A stretch of 64,000 nucleotides of DNA, taken from Nitrososphaerota archaeon. Its GTDB lineage: Archaea > Thermoproteota > Nitrososphaeria > Nitrososphaerales > Nitrosopumilaceae. A model generated the notes under the pieces. It was given only the letters and a program-made list of their open reading frames with translations, was not told the DNA's origin and ran no database searches. Both the position numbers and the translations under genes were made by a program. This document shows positions 9,637 to 28,841 of this stretch, in pieces (the stretch's first letter is position 1; every line of letters begins with the position of its first letter). The stretch spans positions 67,457-131,456 of the forward strand of contig JAGWFT010000001.1 of NCBI GenBank assembly GCA_028867755.1, in the 5' to 3' direction.

Positions 9637-10572
9637 TTGAACTCAAATAAGATAATACTTGTATCTATATTTGTTGTCGTTGTATATGCAATAATTATTT
9701 CATTATCTGATACCAAATTATTTCTCACAAAATTTTCTACTGTAAATATCAAATATCTATTGATTGCATTAGGATTTTTTTCTTTGGGCTATTTTGTAAG
9801 ATCCTTTAGGTGGATAGAAATGTTGAGATTTATGAAGATCAAAATTCCAGTTTTAAAAAATATCATAATTTACTTTACTGGTTATGCTTTTTCACTTACT
9901 CCAGGAAAAGTGGGAGAAGGAATACGCTCAAAATATCTAAAGGACAGCTTTGAAGTTTCTATCACAAGATCTCTACCCACAGTTTTAGCGGAAAGATATT
10001 ATGATGTCATTGGAGTTATTGCAATAATTTTCATCACTGTAGGGTTAACACAGACAGGGAGTTTCATGGTATATGCTGGCATTGCACTTTTGGTGTTCTT
10101 CTACTTTTCAGTAAGAAAGAAAATTGCTTTGAAGCTACTTTCGCCTTTGAATAGGGTCAAGAGGCTTCAGGCAATACAACATAATCTAATCGAATCGGTT
10201 GAGGTTCTTGAAACTCTATTGAAGCCAAAGATATTCGTACAATGTTCTTTTCTGACCATTGTATCTTGGATGGCAGAAGCTGTTGGGGCTTACTTTGTCT
10301 TTAAGAGCTTTCACTTGGAGTTTGGCATTCTGAAGGGGGCGTTTGACTATGTGACAACGTCGCTTGCTGGTGCTGCTACATTGCTGCCAGGAGGCGTAGG
10401 TGGAACCGAGGCAAGTCTCATAGGTCTTTTACTATTACAGGGTCATAGCTATGACGATATACTTGGAGCAGTTCTCATGATTAGATTCTTCGCGCTATGG
10501 TATGTCATAATAATAGGAATTGTTTTTACATCAATCTATAAGATGAACCAGAGGAGGTATATCTCCAAATGA
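9637..10572 (+). CDS. Flippase-like membrane protein (lysylphosphatidylglycerol synthase TM / UPF0104 family)
   Basis: RSFRW, TPGKVGEGIR, ERYYD and PGGVGGTEA motifs. Stop overlaps the next ATG (ATGA). Confidence 0.85.
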   Translation: MNSNKIILVSIFVVVVYAIIISLSDTKLFLTKFSTVNIKYLLIALGFFSLGYFVRSFRWIEMLRFMKIKIPVLKNIIIYFTGYAFSLTPGKVGEGIRSKYLKDSFEVSITRSLPTVLAERYYDVIGVIAIIFITVGLTQTGSFMVYAGIALLVFFYFSVRKKIALKLLSPLNRVKRLQAIQHNLIESVEVLETLLKPKIFVQCSFLTIVSWMAEAVGAYFVFKSFHLEFGILKGAFDYVTTSLAGAATLLPGGVGGTEASLIGLLLLQGHSYDDILGAVLMIRFFALWYVIIIGIVFTSIYKMNQRRYISK

Positions 10573-11459
10573 CTAGCATGAGGACAATTGTAAGCTTCAT
10601 CAGGGTTAAACAATGGTACAAAAATGTCATCATCTTTTTGCCATTGGTATTTTCTTTCAAGTTCTTTCTCCTTCCAGAATTTCTATTAACCGTTCTTGGT
10701 TTCATAGCTCTTTCTATGATCTCAAGCGCAATGTATGCTAGGAACGATATCAAGGATCTGGAAACGGATAAATCACATCCGTTAAAAAAACAGAGGGCTT
10801 TGCCGGCTGGACGGATCAATGTAAAACAGGCAGAGACGATTTTTGGAATACTTCTGGTTATAGGATTTGGAATTTCGATTCTACTTAACGTGTACTTTAC
10901 TTTATTGCTTGCAATATTTTTTGCAAATACAGAGATCTATTCAAGATGGACAAAAAACATCATATTTCTTGATGCATTTGCAATTGGAATTAACTTCATC
11001 ATAAGAGCAATGGCTGGAATTGTTTTGTTGCACACTCCTCTTTCTCCATGGATTATTCTAGGTGTATTCTTTGTGGCTTTGTTTCTTGCCTTTACGAAGA
11101 GAAAAGGAGAGCTCATCACCCTAGAAGAAAAAGCACACGAGCATCGAGTAACGCTCAAAGATTATTCATCTTTTTCACTAAATTCAGCACTCATAATCTC
11201 AGCAGTTATGATAATCGTGACTTATTCACTTTATGCAATGCATGGTCCAAATGGAGATTGGAGGTTAATTCTCACAGTACCATTCATAATATTTGTCATT
11301 TTCAGACATCTGTACCTTTCAGGTATAAATGATACACTTGCTCAGACAAATGAGGTTTTCAAAGACAAGCATTCCCTTGTAGCTATTATTGCTTATGCCA
11401 TTTTCACGATAATTTTGTTGTATATGGGACATTCTGAAATCTTTGGTGGCAATTTTTAA
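10569..11459 (+). CDS. ubiA: UbiA-family polyprenyl-phosphate phosphoribosyltransferase (DPPR synthase-like, Rv3806c/NoeC type)
   Basis: RVKQWYKN, NDIKDLETDKSHPLKKQRALPAG and KRKGEL match the DPPR-synthase subfamily motifs RxxQWxKN, NDxxDxExDxxHPxKxxRP and KRxxEL. Confidence 0.88.
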   Translation: MTSMRTIVSFIRVKQWYKNVIIFLPLVFSFKFFLLPEFLLTVLGFIALSMISSAMYARNDIKDLETDKSHPLKKQRALPAGRINVKQAETIFGILLVIGFGISILLNVYFTLLLAIFFANTEIYSRWTKNIIFLDAFAIGINFIIRAMAGIVLLHTPLSPWIILGVFFVALFLAFTKRKGELITLEEKAHEHRVTLKDYSSFSLNSALIISAVMIIVTYSLYAMHGPNGDWRLILTVPFIIFVIFRHLYLSGINDTLAQTNEVFKDKHSLVAIIAYAIFTIILLYMGHSEIFGGNF

Positions 11460-11491
11460 GGTTTATTAAAGAACTGCGGAAGTCACATGGT

Positions 11492-12484
11492 GTGTCTGAG
11501 AAATATTTGGTAACAGGAGCTCCCGGGTGGCTGTGCAATAGACTTGTTAAAGTAATGGGACAAAGTGAGATGAAAGTAAGATGCCTTGTACTGAAGGGGA
11601 TGAAGATAGAGCATCTAGAAGAATGTGGTGCTGAGATTTTTTATGGTAATGTATTGAACTTTGATTCCTTGCTTGAAGCAACAAAAGGTATTGATAAAGT
11701 AATTCATGCTGTAGGAGTTATACACCCAAAGAAAGCAAAGGACTTTTATGATCTAAATACGGGGGGCACAAAGAACATGTTGGAAGCAAGCTCTCAGAAC
11801 GGGGTAAAGAAATTCTTGTTTGTAAGCTCCAACTCTGCTCAAGGATACAATGCAGACAAGGACAAACCAATGACTGAAGAGGGGCTAGAGAGACCATACA
11901 CTGACTATGGCAAGAGCAAGTGGAAGGCAGAGCAAATAGTAAAGGAGTATCAGAAATCTGGAAAATTACAAACCGTGATTGTAAGGCCATGCTGGTTTTA
12001 CGGGCCAAATCCAGGACAGATCTTCATTGAACTTGCAAAATACATCAAAAAAGGAAAGCCCCCAATCTTTGGAGACGGACAGAACCTCCGCACAATGTCC
12101 TATATAGATAATACTGTTGATGGTATACTAAAGGCAATAGACTCAGACAAGACTAATGGACAGATATACTGGCTTGGTGATGAAAAACCATACAAACTGA
12201 TTGACATCTACTATGAGATGGCAAAGAATCTTGGGGTGGAGATCAAACCAACTTACATACCATGGTTCTTGTGCTGGCTAGCTGAGAAAATTGATCAATT
12301 TACTGGAAAATTTGGACAATATCACAAACACCTTCATGTTATGGGCGAAACTGGGCATTACATATGGTGTGACACGGCAAAAGCACAGCAAGACTTTGGA
12401 TACAAGCCAGGAATATCGTTGCAGGAAGGAATGAAAAGAACTATAGGCTCTATGCAAGAAGCTGGTATTCTTGATAAGATCTAA
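11492..12484 (+). CDS. NAD-dependent epimerase/dehydratase (extended SDR)
   Basis: LVTGAPGWLC (atypical glycine motif), YGKSK, RPCWFYGP. Confidence 0.85.
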   Translation: MSEKYLVTGAPGWLCNRLVKVMGQSEMKVRCLVLKGMKIEHLEECGAEIFYGNVLNFDSLLEATKGIDKVIHAVGVIHPKKAKDFYDLNTGGTKNMLEASSQNGVKKFLFVSSNSAQGYNADKDKPMTEEGLERPYTDYGKSKWKAEQIVKEYQKSGKLQTVIVRPCWFYGPNPGQIFIELAKYIKKGKPPIFGDGQNLRTMSYIDNTVDGILKAIDSDKTNGQIYWLGDEKPYKLIDIYYEMAKNLGVEIKPTYIPWFLCWLAEKIDQFTGKFGQYHKHLHVMGETGHYIWCDTAKAQQDFGYKPGISLQEGMKRTIGSMQEAGILDKI

Positions 12485-13508
12485 GCGGTGCCTTGTAACT
12501 GGTGGTTCTGGATTTGTTGGCACACATCTTGTAAAGAAACTTTTAGATCTTGGTAATGAGGTGAGAATTCTCGATATTACAGAACCTGACAAAGGGATTG
12601 GTTCTAAGGTTGAGTTTTTCAAAGGAGATATACGAAATACTGAGAAAGTAAAGACGGCCTGTAAAGATATAGATCATGTCTTTCATGCAGTTGCACTAGT
12701 CCCCATTTCAAAAGCTGATAAAATGTTTGATGAGGTCAATGCAGGTGGAACTAAAAATATCCTAGATGCTGCAATAGAGAATAAAGTAAAGTCAGTTTTA
12801 CACTTGTCATCTACCTCAGTATACAAGATCCCAAATAGAGGTATGGTGATGGATGAGAATTACCCTAGAGCCCCAGTTGGAGCATATGGCAGAGCAAAAT
12901 ATCTTGCAGAAGAGATCTGTTTTGAATATATGAAGAAAGGAGTTCCTATAACCATCATTAGGCCGAAAACAATTCTTGGGCAAAATAGACTAGGTATTTA
13001 CTCGCTTCTTTTTGAATGGATAATGAATGACAAGCCAATTTTTATTCTAGGAGATGGCAAGAATTTTTATTCTTATATTAGCATTTCAGATTTGGTAGAG
13101 GCCATTGTTCTTAGTGCGGAAAAAGGAATAAGAGAAGTCTTTAATATTGCTACAGACAAATACGGAACTTACCGTGGAGACATAGAAGATCTTATCAAAT
13201 ATGCACATAGTAGATCAAAAGTGTATTCTATAAATGCCAATCTCTGTCGTTTTATTTTAAAAGCTCTTGATAAGATGAACTTATCTCCCTTGTCAGAGTG
13301 GCATTATTCCATAATAGACAAGGAATACGTCTTTGACATATCAAAGGCAAAGAAGATTCTAGGATGGTCTCCAAGGGATAGTAATCAAAAAATGTTTCGA
13401 GAATCATATGATTGGTTTAAGGAAAATTATCACTCACTTCATAAGACTGGTACTACTCACAAGACAAAACTCAATCCCAAGATTTTTGGGGTTATTAACA
13501 AACTCTAA
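12471..13508 (+). CDS. NAD-dependent epimerase/dehydratase (extended SDR)
   Basis: LVTGGSGFVG, YGRAK. Confidence 0.88.
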   Translation: MIRSKRCLVTGGSGFVGTHLVKKLLDLGNEVRILDITEPDKGIGSKVEFFKGDIRNTEKVKTACKDIDHVFHAVALVPISKADKMFDEVNAGGTKNILDAAIENKVKSVLHLSSTSVYKIPNRGMVMDENYPRAPVGAYGRAKYLAEEICFEYMKKGVPITIIRPKTILGQNRLGIYSLLFEWIMNDKPIFILGDGKNFYSYISISDLVEAIVLSAEKGIREVFNIATDKYGTYRGDIEDLIKYAHSRSKVYSINANLCRFILKALDKMNLSPLSEWHYSIIDKEYVFDISKAKKILGWSPRDSNQKMFRESYDWFKENYHSLHKTGTTHKTKLNPKIFGVINKL

Positions 13509-13563
13509 TTTGAAAAACATCTTTTTCATCTCTAAAAATTCTACAATTTTAACAGTAGGTATA

Positions 13564-14058
13564 TCATAACCTATGACTGAATTCTTTTATCATTTGTAGT
13601 TGTGTACGATTAAAATAACAATAGGGTCTAGCCTTTCTTACGGTTTGTATAGCTTCATCTGTTTTTATGCCTTCGGAAATTAGGTACAATACTGCCATCA
13701 GTGGACCTCTTCCCCTTCCTAAATTACAATGAATGAATATTTTGGATCCTTGCATACGTTGATTTCTTATCCATGCTGTTGTATTAATTGCTTCATTTAG
13801 GTCTGGAATGCCACGATCTTGTACGGATAATCTGATATAGCTCATCCTAAATTTCTCAATCTCCGTAGGATCATCATGATCTTCAGCCCGCATGTCTACT
13901 ACTGCTACGATTCCCTCTTTTGCAAGGTATTCTATTTTTGATGCTCCTCCAACGCTCAGATTTTGATTAATAAATGATATATCTGGTTTTTTGCCAAGTG
14001 TCTTTCTATGAAACCGTACTGTTACGGCTCCAAGAAGATGATCGAAGGTACTAAACAT
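13564..14058 (-). CDS. Dual-specificity / cysteine-based phosphatase
   Basis: P-loop HCNLGRGR (CX5R), with the upstream acid-loop VQDRGIP. Confidence 0.88.
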   Translation of the reverse strand: MFSTFDHLLGAVTVRFHRKTLGKKPDISFINQNLSVGGASKIEYLAKEGIVAVVDMRAEDHDDPTEIEKFRMSYIRLSVQDRGIPDLNEAINTTAWIRNQRMQGSKIFIHCNLGRGRGPLMAVLYLISEGIKTDEAIQTVRKARPYCYFNRTQLQMIKEFSHRL

Positions 14059-14267
14059 GATTTCATCATAAAATTAACTAGATTTATTCCAAACTATGAG
14101 TCGTATTATATACTCGATACATGTTGATAACTTTTTGATACATTGATTCAGTATCAATGAGCATCTCAAACGTGAGTAAGAAAACAAAGACCATAAATCG
14201 TTTGGTGAAAAACAATGTTGTTGCCTTCTTAGTTTTCTTGTAAATCTAAATCCATTTTTAAGCAAAA

Positions 14268-15839
14268 TTAAACAATTTTAGTTACTTGTTTTGATTTGTC
14301 TTTTAGAAAAAATGGAATTAATACACCAATAGAAAGCATTATTATCATTACAATAACAAAAATCTGGTTGTAAGAATTGAATGGATGATTTTCCGGATGT
14401 GATAAAGGACCAATACTTGGTAAAATAAAATCAAATCCTTGATAAATTGTATGGACTAAATTGCCTTTAATTGGGTTATAACAACACTCAGCCAATCTGC
14501 CTCCGATAAAAGAAAAACTAAATACAAAAGATGCACCTATAACTGAAAAAATTGATATTAATATTCTGTATATCCAATTTTTTGAAAATTTTTGTAAACC
14601 CAAAGCAAATGGTATTGTCATCAGAGGAATTGTGGGTAAAAAGTATCTAAATGGAGAATCTATTGCATCCATAGAGCTGATGGGATTCATCCATGTATAT
14701 GATCCTATGTCTAATGCTGATATAATTATAATAGTAGTCAACAATAAGCGGTTTTTATTCAATACTGATTTAATCCCTAATACAGATAACATTACCACTG
14801 GTGAAAAAATAAATAATCCGTGATATTTTCCAAAAAATATTTCAATCAATTCAGGGATTGCCCAAGTTTTAGTGTCACCACCACCAAAAACTCCATAACC
14901 AGAATAACCATTACTGAATGGTGGGTTCAATAGAAAGTGCAATGGAGTAATTGCTCCTAATGAAAGTCTTGCTTCTGCTCCTCCTACGAGTGAATGATAC
15001 ATGTAAATATTATTTATTATTGCCAGACTTGTTAAAATTATGAAAAAACTCAAGAAGACCATGAAATTTTTTAAATTGATTTTATGCGTTAAAAGCAGTA
15101 AAAAAACTAGAGGAATCAGTGCTAGATCTAGTATAATAAAAAAGATTTTTAAAAAAAAACCAAATCCTACGAGTGCTCCTGCTGCAGCCATATGGACATT
15201 ATTCTGATTTTTTTCAAAAATTACATAAAGAATAACAATCAAAAATAATGTAATTACTACATCAGGATAGATTTGGTTAGACCATGTGAATAAAAGCGTA
15301 GAAAAACTGAAAATTATTGTAGTAAGAAAACCTATTTTGGGTGTAGAAAGATTAGATGTAAATTTGTAGATGAAAACTGAAGTCAAGCTAGATAATGCCG
15401 ACATTGTTACTAATGCACCAAAAACACCTGCAACCGCGTAACCTGGAACTAGCATAAAAGACACACCTGGACCTCCTCCCATCATCCAATGCCCATCATC
15501 TCGTTGAAAAGATTCCCAATAAGCAGAATTATTGTAATATACATGAGGCCATATCAATTTTGGATCTTGATGACTGAAGTATTCATCCATGTACACATTG
15601 TGACGTTGTATTATCTCTGACGTAACGGCTAGATAATGTGGTTCATCTCCTGTCACGACCCCACCGATAACAGGATAATCTAGGTGTATTTTTACCTCAT
15701 ATACGTCCACTGAGACAAATGCAGTTAATGTTATAATAAATACTAGTAGAATTCCTTTTTTTTCTACTATTTTCCAAAAACTGCTAATCTGTATTTTCAT
15801 TTTAAATAATCCAATTAGACATTTTATAAAATATTCCAA
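14268..15839 (-). CDS. Polytopic GT-C glycosyltransferase
   Basis: TGDEPHY motif after TM1, IYPD, FLK and RYFLP motifs, many TMs. Confidence 0.72.
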   Translation of the reverse strand: MEYFIKCLIGLFKMKIQISSFWKIVEKKGILLVFIITLTAFVSVDVYEVKIHLDYPVIGGVVTGDEPHYLAVTSEIIQRHNVYMDEYFSHQDPKLIWPHVYYNNSAYWESFQRDDGHWMMGGGPGVSFMLVPGYAVAGVFGALVTMSALSSLTSVFIYKFTSNLSTPKIGFLTTIIFSFSTLLFTWSNQIYPDVVITLFLIVILYVIFEKNQNNVHMAAAGALVGFGFFLKIFFIILDLALIPLVFLLLLTHKINLKNFMVFLSFFIILTSLAIINNIYMYHSLVGGAEARLSLGAITPLHFLLNPPFSNGYSGYGVFGGGDTKTWAIPELIEIFFGKYHGLFIFSPVVMLSVLGIKSVLNKNRLLLTTIIIISALDIGSYTWMNPISSMDAIDSPFRYFLPTIPLMTIPFALGLQKFSKNWIYRILISIFSVIGASFVFSFSFIGGRLAECCYNPIKGNLVHTIYQGFDFILPSIGPLSHPENHPFNSYNQIFVIVMIIMLSIGVLIPFFLKDKSKQVTKIV

Positions 15840-16117
15840 TATATAGGTAATAGACTGAAAAAGCGCTTACAATCTCCTGATTCCCATCTCAGAATTAATA
15901 GACTTAAGATATTTTTATCTGATAACTTAGAGAATATATTGCATACTTCATGAATTGAATAACTCTTTCCGGATCCTACGTTGCACACATTGAATTTTTT
16001 CGTTTTTCTTAAAATTAATTCAATTGCTATAACTGCATCTTTTACATGAAGAAAATCTCTTTTTGGATAAAGTACTTTTAGATTCATTTTGAAAATAATT
16101 GTAGTTTTATAAAACAA
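15824..16117 (-). pseudogene. C-terminal fragment of an NAD-dependent epimerase
   Basis: RDFLHVKDA...FNVCNVGSGKSYSIHEV is the SDR C-terminal signature. No Rossmann N-terminus; the frame degenerates afterwards. Confidence 0.8.
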
Positions 16118-16189
16118 GTAATTGTGATTTCAGTTCATTCTTTTACTAATTTTGTAGATTATTGAAATATACGACTTTATGTCAATGTC

Positions 16190-17209
16190 CTAATATCTGA
16201 GAATTATCCAAAGAATATTTAAACCTCCCTCCAAATTTTTAAGGAATTTATCAGAACCAACTTTCGATTCTCCAATTCTTTTCTTATATGTCACAGGAAC
16301 TTCAATAATTCTAAAATCTTTATCCAAACATTTAGTTGTTAAGAATACAATTTCAGCAATCCCCCCAATTGGTATGTCACTATCCGGAAAATTCAATTGA
16401 TCATGTATTTCTTCAATGACTTTCCTTCTGAAGATTCTTAGCATACATCCTTCGTCACTTATATTAAAAATTCCTAAATAAATAAAGTTCAGATATTTTA
16501 ATTGAAGTAATTTTGAAAAAAAATAATTCCCCCATATGTGTACTGCTGATTCTCGAAGATTTCCCTTTTCAGTCAGAATTTGTACTCGCCTCGAACCATT
16601 TACTACGTCACAATGGTCTAGATATGGTAACATTTTGTCTAAATCATATGCGCTATGAGTTCCATCTGCTTCAGTAAGAGCAATTACATTTGCATCTGTA
16701 TTCAGAGCTTCTTTTAGTCCGAGTACAATTGAATGTGCCATGCCTCTATTTTCAGTCTTTGTGATTACCTTTGCTCCACTTTGTCTAGCTAATTCGACGG
16801 TCTTGTCGCTACTGAAATTATCTATTACAATAACATGTTTGACAAATTTATGTCTAAGATGATCATCGACTACTTGTTGAATGGATAGTTCTTCGTTATA
16901 AGCAGGTATTACTACACAGATACGTGGGTTATCAATCCTATCGTATTGAAGAAAATGCTTTTCAGATTCTGTTCGATATTTCATCCTACTAAACAAATAG
17001 ATCAAAAATAAAATTATCCAAATGAAGTCTATTAATAATATCCATTTCAGATATTGCGTACTAACAAGAGTTATAATAAGACCTTTACCTTGTAGAAAAA
17101 ATTGTATTCCGTTAGTAATGAGTAGAATAAAGATTGAGAATACAGAATACAAATTTACAATAAAAATCGGGAAAAACGATATTACTAATACTTTAAAAAG
17201 TTTTGCCAT
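16190..17209 (-). CDS. GT2 glycosyltransferase (polyprenol-phosphate-sugar synthase-like) with N-terminal TM helices
   Basis: VIPAYNEE, IDNFSSDKT, EADGTH (DxD-like), IEVPVTY...GESK. Confidence 0.85.
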   Translation of the reverse strand: MAKLFKVLVISFFPIFIVNLYSVFSIFILLITNGIQFFLQGKGLIITLVSTQYLKWILLIDFIWIILFLIYLFSRMKYRTESEKHFLQYDRIDNPRICVVIPAYNEELSIQQVVDDHLRHKFVKHVIVIDNFSSDKTVELARQSGAKVITKTENRGMAHSIVLGLKEALNTDANVIALTEADGTHSAYDLDKMLPYLDHCDVVNGSRRVQILTEKGNLRESAVHIWGNYFFSKLLQLKYLNFIYLGIFNISDEGCMLRIFRRKVIEEIHDQLNFPDSDIPIGGIAEIVFLTTKCLDKDFRIIEVPVTYKKRIGESKVGSDKFLKNLEGGLNILWIILRY

Positions 17210-17382
17210 TAATATCCCAATAGGAACAGATTATTTAACACATACTTTTGGGGTGGTCGTTGCTTTTAGTGGGATGGTATACAGAATGATGGATGCAACT
17301 GTTAGAGTGATTGAGATTATGTATTAATTTTAAATGGTTTCTGTATAGCAATTCTGTTACTAACACATAAATAACAAATTTA

Positions 17383-18312: not shown

Positions 18313-18406
18313 AACCGTTTCATCATAATGGAGCATATCCAGAAACATTTCAGTTCATTTAACAAGCAGTAAACAATATATTCCGCATTATTTGCTCATG
18401 AAATAG

Positions 18407-19147: not shown

Positions 19148-19239
19148 TAGGATCTAAGATGATGTGTTTTGGGCCTAGATGGTAATTATCTAGTTACTAT
19201 ATTTTTAAAGCATGACAAAGGGAAGAAGGATGAAATAAC

Positions 19240-19674
19240 TTGAGCAATATACGTCATGTAGGATTAGTTGTTGCAGATATGGAAAAAGCTCTTGGATTTT
19301 ATCGTGATCTATTAGGCCTAAAAATATGTGGTACAACAGATGAAAAAGGAGATTACATAAATCAATTGCTAGCCAAGGAAAATATCGAATTAAAAACAAT
19401 CAAACTCTCTGCAGAGGATAATGCAACAAGAATTGAATTACTGAAGTTCTCTAATTCTAAATCCAATCAAACCAAAAAAATTGAATTATCTGACCCGGGT
19501 TTTACACACATAGCACTTACTGTAAACAATTTAGATGAAATATATTTACGCTTGCGAAAAGCTGGCATCCAATTCAACTGTCCTCCAAAATCCTCACTAA
19601 ATGGAAAATTAAAGATTACTTTTTGTAGAGACTTTGAAGGAAACTATTTGGAATTAACTGAAGAGATCTTATGA
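19240..19674 (+). CDS. VOC/glyoxalase-superfamily protein
   Basis: RHVGLVV, IELLKF, HIALTV, RDFEGNYLEL: two beta-alpha-beta-beta-beta units with His/Glu metal ligands. Confidence 0.88.
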   Translation: MSNIRHVGLVVADMEKALGFYRDLLGLKICGTTDEKGDYINQLLAKENIELKTIKLSAEDNATRIELLKFSNSKSNQTKKIELSDPGFTHIALTVNNLDEIYLRLRKAGIQFNCPPKSSLNGKLKITFCRDFEGNYLELTEEIL

Positions 19675-19731
19675 TACCAGATTTCTACTGTTCCAAGAAA
19701 GAGTTTAAAATTTCTTGTGTATTACGTCTTA

Positions 19732-20748
19732 TCATTTAACGAAATCATATAAGTTCATAACTTTTGGACCCTCATTTTGAAATTGAAATTCAATCTGCTT
19801 TAAACCAATATTTTTCATTTTTTCTATCAGTTTTTGTCGCTTTGACGATTCACAGTAAAATAGCATATGACCACCACCACCAGCTCCAGTCAATTTTCCA
19901 CCGATTGCACCATGCTTTAATGCCATATTGTAAATTCGATCTATGCGTTCATTTGTAACATTTTTTGTGAATTTCTTTTTTGCAGTCCAACCTTTGTGAA
20001 GTAGATCACCAAATGTTGTTATATCTGATTTTTTTAGTGATTTGTACATAATTTCTGCAAGATTTTTTACATAGTTTAATGAATCCATAGTATCTTTTTG
20101 ATTTTCCTTTATTAGATCAATTTGTGTTGAAAGTATTGTTGAGCTAGTTCTCGTATCTCCGATATAGAATAATACTAAATTTTGTTGAAGTTCTAAAAAT
20201 GATGCCTTATTCATTTTTATTGGTACAACATTTACGTTACCTTTTGCAAACTTGATGTAATTAAATCCACCAAACGCTGAAACATACTCATCTTGTTTTC
20301 CGATGGGCCATTTTAGAATATTTCTACCTATATGGTATGAAATTTCAGCAAGGCTTTCTTTCGTAATTTCTTGTCCTTTCAATGATGATATTGTTTTTAC
20401 AAGGTTTACTGCTAAGGCACTTGAAGACCCTAGTCCAGAGCCTGGAGGGACATCACTAGAAATTAAAAAATTTGCCCCTTCTCCATAATTGAGATATTTG
20501 ATTACGGTGACGAACAATTCCATTCCATGTTTAGATAATAGTTTATCATAACTAGTTAGCTCATGGTGTGATTGAAAATCAGATGAAAAAGCTTGAACCA
20601 AATTATCATGGCGTGGATTAATTATAACATAAGTAAATTTAGTTATAGCTGTAGAGAGGACGTTTCCACCATGTGTTTCATAATATTCAGGAATATCCGT
20701 ACCCCCTCCTGCAAAACTTATCCTGACAGGAGACATACCAAGAAACAT
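19732..20748 (-). CDS. hddA: GHMP kinase, D-glycero-alpha-D-manno-heptose-7-phosphate kinase-like
   Basis: PVRISFAGGGTD, PPGSGLGSSS, GKQD and GGKLTGAGGGG motifs; gmhA/gmhB are nearby. Confidence 0.8.
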   Translation of the reverse strand: MFLGMSPVRISFAGGGTDIPEYYETHGGNVLSTAITKFTYVIINPRHDNLVQAFSSDFQSHHELTSYDKLLSKHGMELFVTVIKYLNYGEGANFLISSDVPPGSGLGSSSALAVNLVKTISSLKGQEITKESLAEISYHIGRNILKWPIGKQDEYVSAFGGFNYIKFAKGNVNVVPIKMNKASFLELQQNLVLFYIGDTRTSSTILSTQIDLIKENQKDTMDSLNYVKNLAEIMYKSLKKSDITTFGDLLHKGWTAKKKFTKNVTNERIDRIYNMALKHGAIGGKLTGAGGGGHMLFYCESSKRQKLIEKMKNIGLKQIEFQFQNEGPKVMNLYDFVK

Positions 20749-20890
20749 GAAGTGGGTATTTTTGATGTAGAATTTATTGTTATGGAATTTAGAAACAGAT
20801 AACTAAATTCTTATAACATAACTCAAAACTAACCAACAGTAAATTATTGACGATCTCTTGATCTATTTGCTATTTCGTCATCACAATTAC

Positions 20891-20950
20891 ATGAGATTCC
20901 AAGAATTGACTGATAGACAGTAGGCAAAATGGCATCTGGAAAAGATACTT
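20891..20950 (+). mobile_element. Possible heavily deleted IS5-family transposase relic
   Basis: ATG..MRFQELTDRQ* resembles the IS5 N-terminal LTDxQW motif. ggcatctggaaaagatactt reads GIWKKIL if one A is restored. No terminal repeats identified. Confidence 0.3.
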
Positions 20951-21019
20951 GTGGAAAGAGGCCTCTACTGAATCTGATATATGAGGGCTTGAAAGTAACT
21001 CATTATACACTTAACAATA

Positions 21020-21961
21020 TTAATTTATTAATTGACTCATGATATGTTTTATATCAATTTCCATTAGGTCTGATGTCGGATTTAGCCAATCATTAGAAAG
21101 TTGCCGTTTTAGAATAATTTTCTTCTTTAGATTGCAAGTGACACAAATTTCGGCAACAAGGGCATCACACGCAAGATTCTGACTTTTACTATCATCTATT
21201 ACTATCAATTTTTGAGTACTTTGCACATTATCAATTATCTTGCTCCAATTCGTGGGAGTAGCTGAAGTGACATTGAAAATAGATGTATCTATATTGCTTT
21301 TTTGCAATTCTTGATGTAAAAGCCAACCCTGAGGAAAGGAAAAGTTAAAACAAACTATTGTTGCATCTTTTCCCAAACTATATTGAAATACTGTATTATT
21401 GTCATTTGAATAATAAAGTTTCTCAGGTGATAATAGTTCTTCTTTGAATAGTCGTTGACTTACAGTAATTATCCTAAATCCTGGAGATACAAGTTCAGTT
21501 GAGATAATTTTTTCTGCTTCCCATTTGGTCATGATGGAGAATCCTGGGATTCTTGCTATGGAACAAAAATCAGGAAGGTTATTCAAACTTGATTGAGGTC
21601 CCTGATATCCATTATCTACCACAATCGGCATAATTGTGAAGGAAGAATTACTTCCCAGTTTCATGTTTCTAATGATATTATATGTGTTGACTAGGTGATC
21701 AATACCTAATAACAAAAAATCTAATTGTTTCATAAAAAATATGGAGGAAACGCCATTCATCATCATGCCAAATCCAAAACCGCACAAGGTGTTTTCTGAG
21801 TTTGTTGAATTAATTATCTTGCTACTAGGACGTACGGAGAGTCCTTTTGTCAATCCACCTAAACAAGAACCCGCACTGATGTTCTGACCAAATAATATAA
21901 GTTTATCATGCTTTGAAACCTCGTTTTTGAGTAGAGTATTCACAAACTCAAGGTATTTCAT
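21020..21961 (-). CDS. TPP-dependent enzyme beta subunit (E1-beta / transketolase C-terminal-like), divergent
   Basis: LFGQNI, SENTLCGFGFG, QLDFLLLGIDHLVN, GPQSS. ATGA-coupled to the alpha subunit. Confidence 0.75.
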   Translation of the reverse strand: MKYLEFVNTLLKNEVSKHDKLILFGQNISAGSCLGGLTKGLSVRPSSKIINSTNSENTLCGFGFGMMMNGVSSIFFMKQLDFLLLGIDHLVNTYNIIRNMKLGSNSSFTIMPIVVDNGYQGPQSSLNNLPDFCSIARIPGFSIMTKWEAEKIISTELVSPGFRIITVSQRLFKEELLSPEKLYYSNDNNTVFQYSLGKDATIVCFNFSFPQGWLLHQELQKSNIDTSIFNVTSATPTNWSKIIDNVQSTQKLIVIDDSKSQNLACDALVAEICVTCNLKKKIILKRQLSNDWLNPTSDLMEIDIKHIMSQLIN

Positions 21962-22884
21962 GTTGATATATCCTTCTTAATTTCATCACGTATCTCTCTC
22001 GACATTTCTTCCAAAACAGATGAATTAGCATGCTTATTCAGGACAAATATGGGATCTTCTTCACTTGTTTTTATTAACAATGGCCAATCTTTTAATTCAA
22101 CGGTAGGTGCTGGACCTGCATGATAATTAACAAATTTACCGTTTGGGTTTTCAGGAGTTTTCATAATCCAATCTCCCATGGTTGTTACCATAACTTCTAT
22201 ACAGACTGGCATGCCATCTAACGCTAATTTCCTTAATTTCTTTAGTTGTTCTATATACTCTATTGAATTGTTTCCTTCTAATCTTACATATTTAATGTTA
22301 TAGGAGGAAGTTAATTTTTCAAGATCAATAGGGCATCGCCTCTGATCTATACGAGTAGACATAGACCATTCATTGTTTTCAACAATCACAAATGCTCCAA
22401 GATTGAGACTCTTTAACATTAAAAGACTCTCGTGAAAGGTCCCTTCCTCTATAGAACCATCTCCCCCCAAGACAATTGTGATCCCATTCTGAGGAAGAAT
22501 TTTCTGTGCCATTGCCACACCTGTTGCGACTGAAAAATTATTTCCCAAAATACTAGAGCTGTAAATGATTCCTTTTTGAGAATTTATAACATTCATAGAT
22601 CCCAGTTTTCCCTCTGCAAGTCCTGAAGGTTTCAGAAAATATTCATCCAAGATAGGTTTCAATCTTCCATGTCTTGCCAAATTATAAGCGATGTTTCTAT
22701 GACTTAGAATTAGCTTATCATCGCCTTCCATGAAATGATTCATGGCAACTGCAATTGCCTCATGACCAAAGGCCAAATGAATTGGGATCTTGAATTTTCC
22801 AGCCTTGTATTCTTCATTTACAATCATTTGAGCCAATCTTAACCAAAGTATGTCATGAATAATTTTTTTATTATCTAGTCCCAT
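21958..22884 (-). CDS. TPP-dependent dehydrogenase E1 alpha-like subunit
   Basis: HLAFGHEA, SHRN, GSM and the TPP motif GDGSIEEG...ENNEWSMST. Confidence 0.88.
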   Translation of the reverse strand: MGLDNKKIIHDILWLRLAQMIVNEEYKAGKFKIPIHLAFGHEAIAVAMNHFMEGDDKLILSHRNIAYNLARHGRLKPILDEYFLKPSGLAEGKLGSMNVINSQKGIIYSSSILGNNFSVATGVAMAQKILPQNGITIVLGGDGSIEEGTFHESLLMLKSLNLGAFVIVENNEWSMSTRIDQRRCPIDLEKLTSSYNIKYVRLEGNNSIEYIEQLKKLRKLALDGMPVCIEVMVTTMGDWIMKTPENPNGKFVNYHAGPAPTVELKDWPLLIKTSEEDPIFVLNKHANSSVLEEMSREIRDEIKKDIST

Positions 22885-22893
22885 AGTAATCTA

Positions 22894-23775
22894 CTACACA
22901 AATGGTAAAACAGTCTTGAGTCCACTTTTCAAGTCTATTTCAGGGTTCCAATTTAACATTTTTTTTGCTTTGTTGTTTGAGGGGTTTCTTATGTTTATTT
23001 GAGAAGGATTTGTTTCTATTATCTTTACTGATTTCCCTAATAGATTCTGACTTGTTTCAATTATATCATGTAATGTGATTAATTTGTTACCAGTCAAATT
23101 CAGTATGTTAAATCCACTCAAGCCAATTGATTTCTTTATTCCTCCTGCAATATCAGATACATGAATAAAACGCCTGCCGTTTTTGAGAGATCCTACCTTG
23201 ATTTCTGATTGGTTTTTTACAGAACTCATCAATGACTCTACTGCCGCCCAGTTATTTTTTCGAGGTCCATATATAATACCAAAACGCAAAATTGTTACTG
23301 GACAAAATCCCTGTTCATATTTCTGGCGCAAGTTTGTCTCACTTACTAATTTTGAAAGTGCGTATTCAGAATGATGATTGGCTATGTTTATGAAAGCATG
23401 TTCATCTTTGATTTCATCTTCTTTAAATTCGTCATATACCCATTCGCTAGATGCGAAGATGAATTGTTTGACTTTTTTCATTGATACCGCATTAATCAGA
23501 TTTAGAGTACCCATGACGTTGACATCAAAGCATTCGTATGGCCTACCTCTACAATCTGCATCTCTAGATAATGCAGCCAAATGAATTAGTACATCAGCTT
23601 CTTGAGGAATGACTTGATGAATTTGTGGATTTCTGATATCTACTTGATGAAATTCATAACCACCTGATTTTATATTGGCAGAATCGAAACCAATTATTTC
23701 AAAATTACTATCCTTTAATTGTGAAATTAATTCTTTGCCAACAAAGCTTTCTGATCCAGTTATAACTATTTTCAT
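22894..23775 (-). CDS. NAD-dependent epimerase/dehydratase
   Basis: VITGSESFVG, HLAA, ASSEWVY, YALSK, LRFGIIYGP. Confidence 0.88.
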   Translation of the reverse strand: MKIVITGSESFVGKELISQLKDSNFEIIGFDSANIKSGGYEFHQVDIRNPQIHQVIPQEADVLIHLAALSRDADCRGRPYECFDVNVMGTLNLINAVSMKKVKQFIFASSEWVYDEFKEDEIKDEHAFINIANHHSEYALSKLVSETNLRQKYEQGFCPVTILRFGIIYGPRKNNWAAVESLMSSVKNQSEIKVGSLKNGRRFIHVSDIAGGIKKSIGLSGFNILNLTGNKLITLHDIIETSQNLLGKSVKIIETNPSQINIRNPSNNKAKKMLNWNPEIDLKSGLKTVLPFV

Positions 23776-23893
23776 GTTTTTTATTACCTATTAATTATAC
23801 TACATATCAACCTTTAGAGAAACTGGCTTTCACTAGAGTTGTTCGATAGTGGATCGATGACGACAAGTAAACAATTGACAAACAAAGGGCCAA

Positions 23894-24400
23894 TTAAAAT
23901 CTGAAATAATTAAAATATTGAAGAAATATGTTTCCGAGGTAAATGGCAACTAGTGAATGAATAGATCTTGCTATTCCCATTGAGATCACAAATTTCTTAA
24001 AATCATATTTTTTAATTCCTGCAATTATTGTCACAACTTCTGTCAATACGGGTATCAAATTTAAAATAAAGATTATAGTCCAACCGTGTTTGTTTAACCA
24101 ACCAGAACTTTTTTCAAAATGTTTATTTTCATGTGTTTTTTTTAATAATTTGTAAAATTTTTTACCATCATATCCTATAAAATAGGATAAAATTCCACCC
24201 CCTATTGCTCCGACAGTCATAACAAGAAATACTGTTGATGTTTCTTCACCATCTAAAAGAAGGGCTGTTGATGTAATTACAACTGGAATGGGAATAAACG
24301 AAGAAAAGACCGAATTAAGAAATAGACCAAGCAATCCGTATTTTACAAATATGGGATTTTCAAGGATAGGTTTTAGCAGGTCAATCAACATGGTTGTCAA
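23894..24400 (-). CDS. DedA/VTT-family membrane protein
   Basis: GAIGGGILSYFIG, F...G...IFILNLIP...IIAG...FKKF pattern. Confidence 0.8.
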   Translation of the reverse strand: MTTMLIDLLKPILENPIFVKYGLLGLFLNSVFSSFIPIPVVITSTALLLDGEETSTVFLVMTVGAIGGGILSYFIGYDGKKFYKLLKKTHENKHFEKSSGWLNKHGWTIIFILNLIPVLTEVVTIIAGIKKYDFKKFVISMGIARSIHSLVAIYLGNIFLQYFNYFRF

Positions 24401-24508
24401 GAATATTTTCCTAAATATTAGGGCTCAGTTACACGAAATAATCGCTTGAAAACATGTTCTCGATGCATAAAAATGAAGCCACAATCAGAGAGATTAAAAC
24501 GTTCATTT

Positions 24509-25246
24509 TTAAAAATTTATTTTCTTGAAAATTTTCCATGGAATAAAAGGTAAAAGTAATTTAACTAATTTCCATTTTTTGGGGTACGCCATAGTTCCAA
24601 AATCTCTAAACCTATTTGAATAAACTACATCGGATAATTTCTTTACGTCTATACGCCTGAAAAAAACTTGGTCTTGACCCCCAAAAGAAAGATTAGTATC
24701 AAGATAACCCAAAACATAGAATTGAATTATTACATTAGAATTTTGCATATGATGTCTTAGACTTTCGAAAAAACTTTCTAATCCCCTTTTTGATGCAGCA
24801 TAAGTTACATTTCTACTTCTACCTCTGATTGCAGCAACACTACCAAAACCTATAATCACAGATTTTCTTTCTTTTAGTGAATTCAAAAAATGATTTATTA
24901 TTAGACATACGCATATTAGATTGGTATTAAAAATTTCAATTGCTGTGGTATCATCTAGTCCTGGAACATCATTGATATCTGAATATCCAACGGGAAAAAG
25001 TATGCCTTCTAATGGAGATATATGGTTTAGTGATTGAATAATTTTAGTAAAATCTACAGATATTTTCTTTAAAGATAGTTCAATAGGTATAACTTTCACT
25101 TTAAACCTAATTTCTAAATCAGATTTTAATGGAATTAAATCCCTCATATCGGATGAAATTAAAATTAAATCATTTTTCTCTGAAGCAAATTTTTCTGCAA
25201 GGGATCTCCCTAATCCTGCAGATGCACCTACAATAATGAATGTCAT
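24509..25246 (-). CDS. dprE2: SDR, decaprenylphosphoryl-2-keto-ribose reductase-like
   Basis: GASAGLG; SVAAIRGRSRNVTYAASK resembles the DprE2 active-site segment. ATGA-coupled to dprE1. Confidence 0.75.
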   Translation of the reverse strand: MTFIIVGASAGLGRSLAEKFASEKNDLILISSDMRDLIPLKSDLEIRFKVKVIPIELSLKKISVDFTKIIQSLNHISPLEGILFPVGYSDINDVPGLDDTTAIEIFNTNLICVCLIINHFLNSLKERKSVIIGFGSVAAIRGRSRNVTYAASKRGLESFFESLRHHMQNSNVIIQFYVLGYLDTNLSFGGQDQVFFRRIDVKKLSDVVYSNRFRDFGTMAYPKKWKLVKLLLPFIPWKIFKKINF

Positions 25247-26559
25247 AAATTCAGTTGTTCAGAAAGGTAAGATTTAAAAATTCTATCCGGATCAATTTTT
25301 TTTAGAAGATTTTTAAATTCCTCATACTGAGGATAACACTTTTCAACAATATTCTTTGGTAGTCTTGAGTCTTTTATAATGTAAGGAAGTGCCTTGTAAG
25401 ACATTACTAGTTCGTCAATTTTAGATAGAAAGTGGCTAGTTGAAGGTGAATTTTTAAAGTTCAAAGTGATCGAGAGACCATCTCTACAATATTGAAGAAA
25501 TTTCTGTTCGCCTCTAAAGGGTTTTAGGCCCATGAGATGTAAATCAGGTTTTTCCTTTCTAATTAAACTAGTAAGATCATGAATGAAATCCCTTATGTTA
25601 TTTTTAGAGACAAGGATCTGACATTCCCTAAATCCTTTTTTTCCATAAAGTACAAAATACCATTGTGTTGAAAATGTAAATGGAAAAAAATTATTGAAAA
25701 TGTCTTTTTCTATTTTATTTTGACTTGTTTCGATGTTTCTATTAATAGAATTGAACAACGGAATGGTGAATTTTCCCCAAAAGGATATTGGGATCTGAAT
25801 TTTTTTAATAGTTGTTTTTTTTGGAACTATCAAATTGTTGCCAAGAAATCCTTCTGAAAATGACCCTATTTGTACGACTCCTTTCTCAAAATTCTTCAAT
25901 ATTGACCCATTGTGCCATGCATAAAGTATCTCCGAATTGGGATTTCTTTCAAATATTTCCGCAGATTCTATCATGGAATCTACTTTCCTTGGTTCAACAG
26001 TGATTCTGTCAGAAGGTAAATCTCGAAGTTGAATCTTTACTTTTGTTATGATACCAGTCAATCCCAAACCGCCAAAAGTAGCTTCAAAAAGTTCTGATTT
26101 TGATTCTAGTATTCTTGATCCATTTTTAGGATGAAATAGCTCTATCCAGATAACATGTTCTTTGAATGATCCATATTTGTGAGGATTCTTACCATGAACA
26201 TTTGCTGCTACACAGCCTCCTATCGTTATGTCTGGATATCCCGGTTGTACTGGCAGATATAATTTCTCAGTAAAGCTCCATTCCAATAACTTTTTGAGTG
26301 TAATTCCAGATTCAACAACCACAGTCTTCTGTTTTACATCGAATTCCAGTATCCGATTAAAGGGAGATAATTCTCTAACCAGAGTATCTTGTCCAAAGCT
26401 TGCTGGAACATAAGACAATCCAGAACCTCGAGGAATTTGAAACGTTGTAATGCTTTCTTCAAGCATTCTTGTTCTGTCTGGTTTTTGATGTAGTGTAGTA
26501 ATAGAAACTGTTTTATCAAAACTGGTAAAAGTTGTATTTTTTGTATAAGGTATTTTCAT
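25243..26559 (-). CDS. dprE1: FAD-linked oxidoreductase, decaprenylphosphoryl-ribose 2-oxidase-like
   Basis: PRGSGLSY, PG...ITIGGCVAANVHGKN...GSF, GGLGLTGII and KDSR motifs. Confidence 0.88.
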   Translation of the reverse strand: MKIPYTKNTTFTSFDKTVSITTLHQKPDRTRMLEESITTFQIPRGSGLSYVPASFGQDTLVRELSPFNRILEFDVKQKTVVVESGITLKKLLEWSFTEKLYLPVQPGYPDITIGGCVAANVHGKNPHKYGSFKEHVIWIELFHPKNGSRILESKSELFEATFGGLGLTGIITKVKIQLRDLPSDRITVEPRKVDSMIESAEIFERNPNSEILYAWHNGSILKNFEKGVVQIGSFSEGFLGNNLIVPKKTTIKKIQIPISFWGKFTIPLFNSINRNIETSQNKIEKDIFNNFFPFTFSTQWYFVLYGKKGFRECQILVSKNNIRDFIHDLTSLIRKEKPDLHLMGLKPFRGEQKFLQYCRDGLSITLNFKNSPSTSHFLSKIDELVMSYKALPYIIKDSRLPKNIVEKCYPQYEEFKNLLKKIDPDRIFKSYLSEQLNL

Positions 26560-26730
26560 AAATTACTTCTAAAATTTCTCTATTTATTATATTAACATTA
26601 GTATTAAATTGGTTATCAAAAATCATTCTTCAGGCATGTTTTTTTCAAAAATAAATCAGCAGAAAGTTTATTGATAGCAAATACCAGCCAAAATTTCTTG
26701 GCAATAACATATTTATCGTAAAGCGAATTT

Positions 26731-27162
26731 CTAGCTCTTCCAAGCAATTTTTTTTTGAGTAATATAATTAAAAAAGAATGCAGTTATAATTGCTATAAAC
26801 TCACTAATATAATAGGGGAATCCAATTTTTTCTGTAAAAAAAACCAATACTAACTCATTTACTCCCAATCCCAAAACAGCAAATGAATTGTATTTAATAA
26901 AACGAATTATTCCTCTTGTGCTTCTTGGTACGTCAGCAAATGTCCACCTATCATGTGCTACATAAGTCCATATTTGTGTAATTTCAAAAGCAAGTGCTAC
27001 TGAAATTACATAATAAACATGTAGAATAGACGTAAACAAAACTGTGATGAAGAAGACACTACTTGCTGAACCTGTTGCTACAAGTAAATATTTGAAAAGG
27101 ATGGGATTCATTATGTATTCGCGCAAAGTACCTATGATATCCATGCTACGTATTTTGTTCAT
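26731..27162 (-). CDS. GtrA-family small flippase-like protein
   Basis: Four TMs, KYLLVA, HDRWTF, RFIKY, FNYITQKKIAW. Directly upstream of dprE1. Confidence 0.85.
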   Translation of the reverse strand: MNKIRSMDIIGTLREYIMNPILFKYLLVATGSASSVFFITVLFTSILHVYYVISVALAFEITQIWTYVAHDRWTFADVPRSTRGIIRFIKYNSFAVLGLGVNELVLVFFTEKIGFPYYISEFIAIITAFFFNYITQKKIAWKS

Positions 27163-27915: not shown

Positions 27916-28008
27916 TTCTCTTATACCTCTCCAAGAATCTAATTTAAAGTGTTACGAATTAGTTAGTGGATTTCTTGATACTTTTTGATTAGATGAGTGT
28001 AAAAAGAA

Positions 28009-28788: not shown

Positions 28789-28841
28789 TCAAACTGTAAT
28801 TAACAAATATTTAAATCAAGATCAATTAATGACTCATTCGT

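Follow-up and report, generated by a model that had tools for sequence, protein, structure and literature searches.

In mycobacteria, the decaprenyl-phospho-arabinose (DPA) pathway comprises Rv3806c, Rv3807c, Rv3790 (DprE1), Rv3791 (DprE2), the GtrA protein Rv3789 and the Emb/Aft transferases of the glycosyltransferase C (GT-C) class. In Pseudomonas aeruginosa Pa5196/PA7, pilin is arabinosylated with proven D-arabinofuranose (Araf) by a contiguous set, PsPA7_6245-6249 with TfpW, in which a phosphatase, a decaprenylphosphoryl-5-phosphoribose (DPPR) synthase, a GtrA-like protein that is required, DprE1 and DprE2 feed the pilin-glycosylating GT-C (10.1101/2020.04.19.049825). Three-component extracytoplasmic pentofuranose systems have also been described in Gram-negative bacteria, in Citrobacter youngae O1/O2 (Kelly et al. 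2024, PMC11127046). There, a UbiA-type transferase uses phosphoribosyl pyrophosphate (PRPP), the 5-phosphate is removed, the product is flipped and an external GT-C transfers the sugar; cytoplasmic epimerases are optional, a short-chain dehydrogenase/reductase (SDR) for xylofuranose (Xylf) and DprE1/E2 homologs for Araf (PMC11127046). Here, we analyzed a 64,000-nucleotide stretch (hereafter named the window) from a Nitrososphaerota archaeon of the family Nitrosopumilaceae, phylum Thermoproteota (assembly GCA_028867755.1, contig JAGWFT010000001.1, positions 67,457 to 131,456 of the forward strand), which carries genes for a UbiA-family transferase, a CX5R phosphatase, a DprE1-like oxidase coupled to an SDR, a GT2 glycosyltransferase and three GT-C enzymes. 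The gene set is real, intact, rare and in an unexpected host, and it quite probably provides a PRPP-derived lipid-linked pentofuranose donor in an ammonia-oxidizing archaeon, whichever of two putative donor modules the DprE pair serves. The label of arabinose is plausible, and sequence alone cannot identify the sugar as arabinose as in tuberculosis bacteria.

The genome (1.64 Mb, 99.95% complete) encodes an archaeal AmoA (356 bits); the host is therefore an ammonia-oxidizing archaeon. The surface glycans of these archaea are almost unstudied, and their variable glycan islands probably decide recognition by viruses and grazers. In glycoproteomics published in 2025, Nitrososphaera viennensis had only one N-glycan, N-glycosylation was not detected in Nitrosopumilus piranensis, and no pentose was reported (PMC12153357). 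Our literature search for a lipid-linked pentofuranose route, arabinofuranose or DprE1 in archaea found nothing relevant.

The UbiA-type transferase and its putative partners

Five adjoining genes make up the neighborhood of the UbiA gene:

9637-10572, plus strand: MprF-TM-like (LPG_synthase_TM, TIGR00374) flippase-like protein (PF03706 E 3.5e-40; TIGR00374 92.8 bits)
10569-11459, plus strand: UbiA-family polyprenyl-phosphate 5-phosphoribosyltransferase (PPPRS/DPPRS type), 296 residues (PF01040 86 bits; NF008977 189.1 bits)
11492-12484, plus strand: SDRa, an extended SDR (HpnA/3-beta-HSD-like; PF01370 E 1.7e-33; YxxxK)
12471-13508, plus strand: SDRb, a second extended SDR with 32% identity to SDRa (PF01370 E 8.5e-38; TGxxGxxG and YxxxK)
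13564-14058, minus strand: soluble CX5R dual-specificity-type phosphatase (DSPc E 3.4e-12)

The UbiA protein scored 189 bits (E 1e-55) on the DPPR synthase model NF008977 and at most 42 bits on the models for ubiA_other, EboC, heme o synthase and digeranylgeranylglyceryl phosphate synthase (DGGGPS). Against the M. tuberculosis enzyme (PDB 8J8J) it scored 101 bits, compared with 28 for DGGGPS. In this alignment, the NDxxDxxxD and HPxK motifs read RNDIKDLETDKSHPLKK in the archaeal protein and VNDVRDVEADREHPTKR in the mycobacterial one, and the motifs of the second half are likewise matched, IRAMAG aligning with IRAIAG (IRAxAG) and KRKGEL with KRYAEL (KRxxEL). In the tree, UbiA falls with DPPRS-type proteins in a clade of 27 rows (99*) that also holds one DPPRS-named protein and a Sulfuriferula protein above the cut-off; the four other UbiA paralogs of the genome lie outside. 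A function as DGGGP synthase or as quinone/heme prenyltransferase was ruled out by the profile scores, the PDB alignment and the tree. UbiA thus belongs to the decaprenyl-phosphate phosphoribosyltransferase branch as a distant member. It remained below the NCBIfam equivalog cut-off (189.1 against 234 bits for NF008977), other DPPRS models scoring lower still; because the DprE1-like oxidase described below also misses its NCBI equivalog cut-off, both are regarded as distant family members.

The start codon of UbiA overlaps the TGA stop of the upstream flippase-like gene (ATGA junction). Orthologs of the latter with 78-79% identity adjoin UbiA in two metagenomic contigs (L048 and L052), and a homolog does so in genome G007; the MprF-TM-like protein is a candidate flippase for the lipid-phosphate sugar. 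SDRa starts 32 nt past UbiA and overlaps SDRb by 14 nt. No match to SDRa was found in 150 family genomes at E 1e-25, and SDRa is a candidate tailoring enzyme of the lipid-linked pentose.

UbiA itself occurs in one other family genome among the 150 searched, and forms with 31-39% identity occur in 29 of 400 phylum genomes. Some of the phylum matches carry one or two in-frame stops, TGA, TAA or TAG (G299:C50:8370-9239, G275:C36:1941-2810, G198, G158, G207, G485), which may represent pseudogenes, sequencing errors or recoding.

For the dephosphorylation step, the CX5R phosphatase is the best candidate, and a likely one, to remove the 5-phosphate from lipid-phosphate-ribose-5-phosphate. Its PDB neighbors include PTPMT1, a lipid phosphate phosphatase. 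CX5R orthologs adjoin UbiA in four metagenomic contigs (L047, L048, L051, L052) and in genome G007, with an invariant HCNLGRGRGP loop. Of 151 family genomes, only G000 and G007 hold a close ortholog, and these are exactly the genomes that hold UbiA. No PAP2 gene is present in the island, the two PAP2 genes of the genome lying at least 440 kb away, and UbiA contains no HAD (haloacid dehalogenase) phosphatase domain, only positions 191-475 of the fused model NF006088 being matched. Profile scans ruled out that the island conceals a PAP2 or HAD phosphatase, or a MATE flippase. In other Thermoproteota families, neither a CX5R phosphatase nor a flippase-like gene adjoins the UbiA homologs (31-39% identity, 29 of 400 genomes), which therefore add no support to the phosphatase link.

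Other genes were seen beside DPPRS-like UbiA in the phylum. A DUF362 protein adjoins it in two archaeal genomes of different families (L038:14037-15161 in G007 and L143:2388-3599 in G200). In G452 (L135:434-1663), the gene that overlaps UbiA encodes a PHP_C/nucleoside-deoxyribosyltransferase-like protein, which may fill the phosphatase step in a different way.

The DprE1-like oxidase, the second loader and the transferases

The oxidase lies on the minus strand, together with the genes that bear on its possible substrate:

25243-26559, minus strand: DprE1-like FAD-dependent lipid-phosphate-sugar 2-oxidase (NF053785 197.6 bits, positions 39-449 of 449)
24509-25246, minus strand: classical SDR in the DprE2 position (adh_short E 1.6e-20)
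26731-27162, minus strand: GtrA-family small membrane protein, in the Rv3789 / PsPA7_6247 position (PF04138 E 3.9e-18)
16190-17209, minus strand: GT2 polyprenyl/dolichyl-phosphate glycosyltransferase, AglJ / dolichyl-phosphate (Dol-P)-hexose transferase-like (PF00535 E 5e-20)

The oxidase scored 197.6 bits on NF053785 (cut-off 500), the next family reaching 63 bits, and matched DprE1 in the PDB over its full length, FAD_binding_4 and C-terminal substrate domain included (E 1.7e-33, 119 bits), followed by a partial match of 42 bits. It hence groups with DprE1, both in NCBIfam and in the PDB, and not with other FAD oxidases. The catalytic residues of DprE1 are His132 and Lys134 of HGKN, Gln336, Lys418 and Tyr60 (M. 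tuberculosis numbering). In the alignment with M. smegmatis DprE1, the HGKN, CQ, KDSR and SY positions are kept, and they are invariant in a 12-sequence oxidase alignment. The equivalent of Cys387, the covalent benzothiazinone site that is dispensable for catalysis in DprE1, is a threonine (SITLNF versus NVCVDF). The oxidase had no match in 150 other family genomes or in 400 phylum genomes.

The stop of the oxidase gene overlaps the start of the SDR gene by 4 nt (ATGA), indicating translational coupling, and 28 of the 31 genome loci found with the oxidase have a homologous SDR immediately after the oxidase gene. The SDR scored 35.6 bits on the DprE2 model NF053786, over a partial region (92-251) and with a cut-off of 250, and ranked seventh among the SDRs of the genome; a PDB search returned generic FabG-type matches only and none of DprE2 type. 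It is thus DprE2 by position only, and would be a 2-keto reductase by analogy. GtrA is encoded 171 nt upstream of the oxidase.

GT2, with two N-terminal transmembrane segments, has AglJ, Dol-P-hexose transferase and PpgS as its best NCBIfam matches and is a putative second lipid-sugar loader of the island.

Metagenomes hold many homologs of both the oxidase and UbiA, and named ammonia-oxidizer records among the homologs are a Marine Group I single-cell genome, a 'Thaumarchaeota archaeon' metagenome-assembled genome (MAG) and Candidatus Nitrosopelagicus. In a tree of 101 oxidase homologs, the low-GC sequences group in a single clade of 42, which is nested within bacterial sequences and has a beta/gamma-proteobacterial clade as sister. 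In this bacterial sister clade, 20 of 28 loci have a GT2 gene beginning 16-23 nt downstream of DprE2 and 0 of 28 have UbiA, some of the loci being the same organism twice. Within the oxidase subclade of the window (L039, L042, L040), the contigs have RmlC, RmlD, GmhA-like, nucleotidyltransferase and GT2 genes in common with the island (49-80% identity), and no UbiA within up to 9 kb of flank. L039 and L042 combine DprE1/E2 of 63-78% identity with GT2 (64%), RmlC, RmlD and GmhA-like genes; the GT2 ortholog of L042 is 3 kb from the DprE pair. In the Marine-group-I-type subclade, an SDR-nucleotidyltransferase-GT2 operon is divergent from DprE1-DprE2. Among five sampled genomes with a DprE1/E2-like pair, four (three bacterial and a partial Marine Group I single-cell genome) are without a DPPRS-like UbiA.

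Two further arrangements were observed among the relatives. In a Haliea MAG (L033:8994-13444), and also in L009, L010, L014, L026 and others, a conserved operon encodes a flippase-like protein (LPG_synthase_TM), the DprE1-like and DprE2-like proteins, a GT2 and a methyltransferase. The cassettes of the bacterial sister clade suggest an uncharacterized on-lipid epimerization of a GT2-loaded sugar. In the low-GC contigs L007 (1352-9248), L044, L045, L046, L050 and L097, a DprE1-like oxidase of 53-58% identity occurs without an adjacent DprE2-type SDR, its neighbors being GT2, a flippase-like gene, NeuB, a PMT_2 GT-C and a nucleotidyltransferase.

The transferases and two other genes of the window are:

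6498-7727, plus strand: GT-C1, a small GT87-like GT-C (Pfam GT87 and PMT_2 sub-threshold; AlphaFold model and homologs)
7876-9429, plus strand: GT-C2, a PMT_2/ArnT-like GT-C (PMT_2 27.8 bits, cut-off 26.1; PMT 23.9 bits, cut-off 22.7)
14268-15839, minus strand: GT-C3, a PMT_2-type GT-C downstream of GT2 (PMT_2 35.4 bits, cut-off 26.1)
15824-16117, minus strand: epimerase fragment of 97 residues (only positions 205-262 of the Epimerase/GDP_Man_Dehyd profiles matched, the C-terminal third)
23894-24400, minus strand: DedA/VTT membrane protein (PF09335 E 1.3e-19; best NCBIfam UptA, 50.8 bits against a 250-bit cut-off)

For GT-C1, 38 of 80 homologs match GT87 (PF09594), a family that also includes AftC, and D92 is invariant. 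Its AlphaFold2 model (pLDDT 89, pTM 0.90) supports a GT-C fold, which is confirmed at the level of the model by Foldseek matches to PIG-U, PimE, ALG3, ArnT and STT3 (E about 1e-4 to 1e-3); against AftA, AftB and EmbB the E values are 0.4-1 only, compared with 1e-4 to 1e-3 for PimE, ALG3 and PIG-U. GT-C2 has about 10 transmembrane segments, and its ESM Atlas model is nearest to a Nitrososphaerota PMT_2 cluster (TM-score 0.83). GT-C3 has 8 transmembrane segments and a GC content of 0.31, resembling the GT2 and DprE genes. PDB sequence searches with the three proteins gave no match at E up to 1. Relative to the longest open reading frames, public gene calls place the start of GT-C1 at residue 87 and that of GT-C2 at residue 41 (6498-6755 and 7876-7995 of the window); the AlphaFold helices of GT-C1, confident from residue 16, favor the longer form.

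The genes named in the preliminary description of this DNA are all present at the positions given there: the UbiA gene coupled to the flippase-like gene, the coupled dprE1-dprE2 pair (24509-26559) with GtrA upstream, and three GT-C genes, two above the PMT_2 cut-off and the third recognized by its AlphaFold model and homologs. They are specific, full-length family matches rather than chance open reading frames.

The genes belong to a surface-glycan island of low GC content that varies between strains and covers roughly the first 36 kb of the window; the mean GC of the genome is 0.383 (38.3%). From the open reading frame list and the Pfam/NCBIfam scans, a plus-strand block reads GT-C1, GT-C2, flippase-like protein, UbiA, SDRa, SDRb and converges with a minus-strand block of GT2, epimerase fragment, GT-C3 and, last, the CX5R phosphatase. 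A long minus-strand run then holds a nucleotidyltransferase, RmlC, GtrA, the DprE1-like oxidase, its SDR, DedA, another SDR, thiamine pyrophosphate (TPP)-dependent E1 alpha/beta and a GHMP kinase. Genes of positions 1-36000 have GC contents of 0.29-0.36, the 5th percentile of 3-kb windows of the genome being 0.344; DprE2 and DedA (0.29-0.30) are under the 1st percentile and SDRa reaches 0.405, so that the island is compositionally mosaic. The DprE operon also spans the nucleotidyltransferase, RmlC, SDR, TPP-dependent E1 alpha/beta and GHMP kinase genes (19732-23775 and 27370-29735), with RmlD divergent; these genes could make an unusual (deoxy or branched) nucleoside diphosphate sugar for the GT2 loader. 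The 97-residue reading frame between GT2 and GT-C3 is probably the remnant of a lost NAD epimerase/dehydratase gene, and the DedA/VTT protein is a candidate recycler of the free lipid phosphate carrier.

One donor route or two

We infer activities, carrier lipid, sugars and acceptors from the gene content, families, couplings and neighborhoods described above. The reading that we tentatively prefer, which we place somewhat short of an even chance, is that the island holds two separate donor modules and that the DprE pair serves the product of GT2. Both modules would follow a common plan, in which a sugar is loaded on lipid phosphate, tailored there, flipped and transferred by a GT-C. In the first module (PRPP route), UbiA would move 5-phosphoribose from PRPP onto dolichyl or polyprenyl phosphate and the CX5R phosphatase would take off the 5-phosphate. 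The resulting lipid-linked ribofuranose (Ribf) might be epimerized by SDRa and SDRb, then flipped by the MprF-TM-like protein, and GT-C1 and GT-C2 would add the pentofuranose to a surface acceptor. In the second module, the AglJ-like GT2 would use a nucleotide sugar to load the lipid, C2 of the bound sugar would be inverted there by the DprE1-like oxidase together with its SDR, GtrA would flip the product, GT-C3 would transfer it and DedA would return the carrier.

This partition is proposed because of the GC split, the differing cohorts of relatives, the GT2-linked DprE1 branch, the parity of the gene content, and the rarity of SDRa, which matches that of UbiA in the family, together with its location in one operon with UbiA. 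The genes for GT2, GT-C3, GtrA, DprE1, DprE2 and DedA have GC contents of 0.29-0.33, and those for the flippase, UbiA, SDRa, SDRb and the phosphatase of 0.355-0.405. The DprE pair is 13.8 kb from UbiA, in a separate operon. Loaders, tailoring pairs and flippase candidates each number two in the island, and GT-C enzymes number three. In L048 and L052, UbiA and the flippase are 78-82% identical to those of the window, whereas DprE1 is only 53% identical and of the other subclade. An SDR epimerase of Citrobacter turns lipid-phosphate-linked Ribf into Xylf (PMC11127046). On a broader scale, GT2 loaders may feed the DprE1/DprE2-like pairs of ammonia-oxidizing archaea and of many Proteobacteria, which would then act as general 2-epimerases on the lipid and form an undescribed route to surface sugars without a nucleotide-activated precursor. 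The lipid-ribose here would instead be reshaped by SDRa/SDRb to a non-arabinose pentofuranose (xylo-, even lyxofuranose), after dephosphorylation by a CX5R phosphatase newly tied to this step; we put this forward with marked reserve.

Several observations weigh against the two-module partition. To our knowledge, the only characterized activity of DprE1/E2 is on lipid-phosphate-ribose, and our literature search on GT2-coupled DprE-like pairs found no paper or biochemistry. GT2 lies outside the DprE operon in the window, 7.3 kb away. In a sister low-GC archaeal subclade (ten contigs), DprE1-DprE2-UbiA are contiguous, four of these contigs also having the phosphatase; L051 adds a GT-C and the phosphatase, and L048 and L052 the flippase-like gene and the phosphatase. 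The closest relatives of UbiA (80-82% identity, in L048 and L052) adjoin the DprE pair and are without SDRa/SDRb. In addition, the flanks of related contigs are at most 10 kb, and a UbiA gene 14 kb off would escape detection. Finally, M. tuberculosis and P. aeruginosa have the order GtrA-DprE1-DprE2 in their arabinose systems (10.1101/2020.04.19.049825).

The proposal of the preliminary description is a near-complete arabinose-donor pathway of mycobacterial type, with transfer of the pentose to S-layer, pilin or lipid glycans. With the genes found here, UbiA, the CX5R phosphatase and then the DprE1-like oxidase with its SDR would make dolichyl/polyprenyl-phosphate-D-arabinofuranose for the GT-C enzymes; GtrA, the MprF-TM-like protein or both would do the flipping, and other sugars would be left to GT2 and the extended SDRs. 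We consider such a single pathway possible but rather doubtful. A candidate gene for every step lies within 21 kb, the catalytic residues of DprE1 are kept, the gene order is shared with both bacteria, and the contigs with contiguous DprE1-DprE2-UbiA form the starred sister subclade of the window's oxidase, so that the pair can serve the UbiA product in relatives. The oxidase and UbiA are found side by side in this genome although each is very rare in the family; as a decisive argument for one pathway this was rejected, the rarity argument being symmetrical, since GT2 orthologs are also rare (4 of 150 family genomes). Moreover, GC content and the relatives that hold the genes set the DprE pair apart from the UbiA module, the oxidase's own subclade and the wider branch are GT2-associated, UbiA comes with its own SDR pair, and six other SDRs of the genome fit the DprE2 model at least as well as the coupled SDR. 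Overall, the part of the proposal that concerns a PRPP-derived lipid-phosphate-pentofuranose donor for external GT-C enzymes is well supported, with CX5R as a plausible substitute for Rv3807c, but the arabinose step is not secured.

A relaxed specificity of the DprE pair is a further reading: as an on-lipid 2-epimerase, it would act on both lipid-linked sugars, and several epimeric sugars would be displayed, such as Ribf, Araf, an epimer made by the SDRs and a 2-epimerized GT2-loaded sugar. Within one archaeal clade (about 50% mutual identity), the pair occurs with UbiA or with GT2, and the comparison of UbiA-linked with GT2-linked DprE1 homologs yielded seven weak separating columns only, with no clear pocket signature and no clear specificity-determining positions. 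A Citrobacter GT-C takes both Ribf and Xylf donors (PMC11127046), but we know of no report of mycobacterial DprE1 acting on hexosyl lipids. We regard such a dual-acting pair as improbable. Less probable still is an incidental co-location, in which UbiA would prenylate a substrate other than a sugar phosphate, or the genes would be decaying cargo without a working pathway. All curated equivalog cut-offs are missed (UbiA 189 versus 234 bits, DprE1 198 versus 500), the neighboring SDR fragment shows some decay of the island, and the genes are missing from nearly all relatives. On the other hand, the open reading frames are all intact and translationally coupled, with catalytic motifs kept, UbiA lies deep within the DPPRS clade, and the modules recur in many independent contigs.

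If the predicted PRPP-derived donor is made, the use of lipid-linked pentofuranose, long known in mycobacteria and shown in 2024 to be general in Gram-negatives, would extend to archaea. The CX5R phosphatase would then be the fourth type of phosphatase, unrelated to the others, to fill the dephosphorylation step, and marine and soil archaea would hold relatives of DprE1, the tuberculosis drug target. The GT2-loader context of most nearby DprE1/E2-like pairs cautions against their automatic annotation as arabinose synthesis genes.

Comparison with described systems

The systems of Kelly et al. have their pathway logic in common with that predicted for the UbiA module of the window. Their hosts are bacterial; here the host is archaeal and the carrier presumably dolichyl phosphate. 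Their HAD phosphatase is fused to UbiA, whereas here a separate CX5R phosphatase is found. Their flippase is of the MATE type; here, the candidates are the MprF-TM-like protein and GtrA, and MatE (PF01554) had no match anywhere in the 99.95%-complete genome. Their GT-C belongs to GT136; by profile, those of the window are GT87-like and PMT_2-like. Finally, one SDR is present in those systems, and two tandem extended SDRs follow UbiA here.

The resemblance to the mycobacterial DPA pathway lies in the homologs of Rv3806c and DprE1, whose motifs align with solved structures, in the SDR coupled to DprE1 with GtrA directly upstream in the same order, and in the nearby GT-C genes. In contrast, identities are about 25-30% with all equivalog cut-offs missed, the island is without PAP2, Cys387 is replaced by threonine, the SDR shows no specific likeness to DprE2, a distance of 13.8 kb separates the operon of UbiA from that of the DprE pair, and the modeled GT-C1 is nearer to PimE, ALG3 and PIG-U than to Emb, AftA and AftB. 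The PsPA7 cluster of P. aeruginosa is similar as a non-actinobacterial set of DPPR synthase, GtrA, DprE1, DprE2, phosphatase and GT-C; it consists of five contiguous genes, compared with two operons here, and no TfpW-like GT-C bearing tetratricopeptide repeats was identified.

Among bacteria, the proteobacterial GT2-coupled DprE1/DprE2-like cassettes (Haliea L033) form the branch nearest to the archaeal DprE1-like clade. They share with the island the MprF-TM-like flippase family, the oxidase-SDR coupling and a GT2 lipid-phosphate glycosyltransferase as loader. GT2 is within about 20 nt of the SDR in these cassettes, whereas here it is 7 kb off in another operon, and the UbiA module is present in addition. 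From the described systems, whose logic it shares, the gene set differs in its archaeal host, phosphatase family, flippase candidates, GT-C families and split arrangement.

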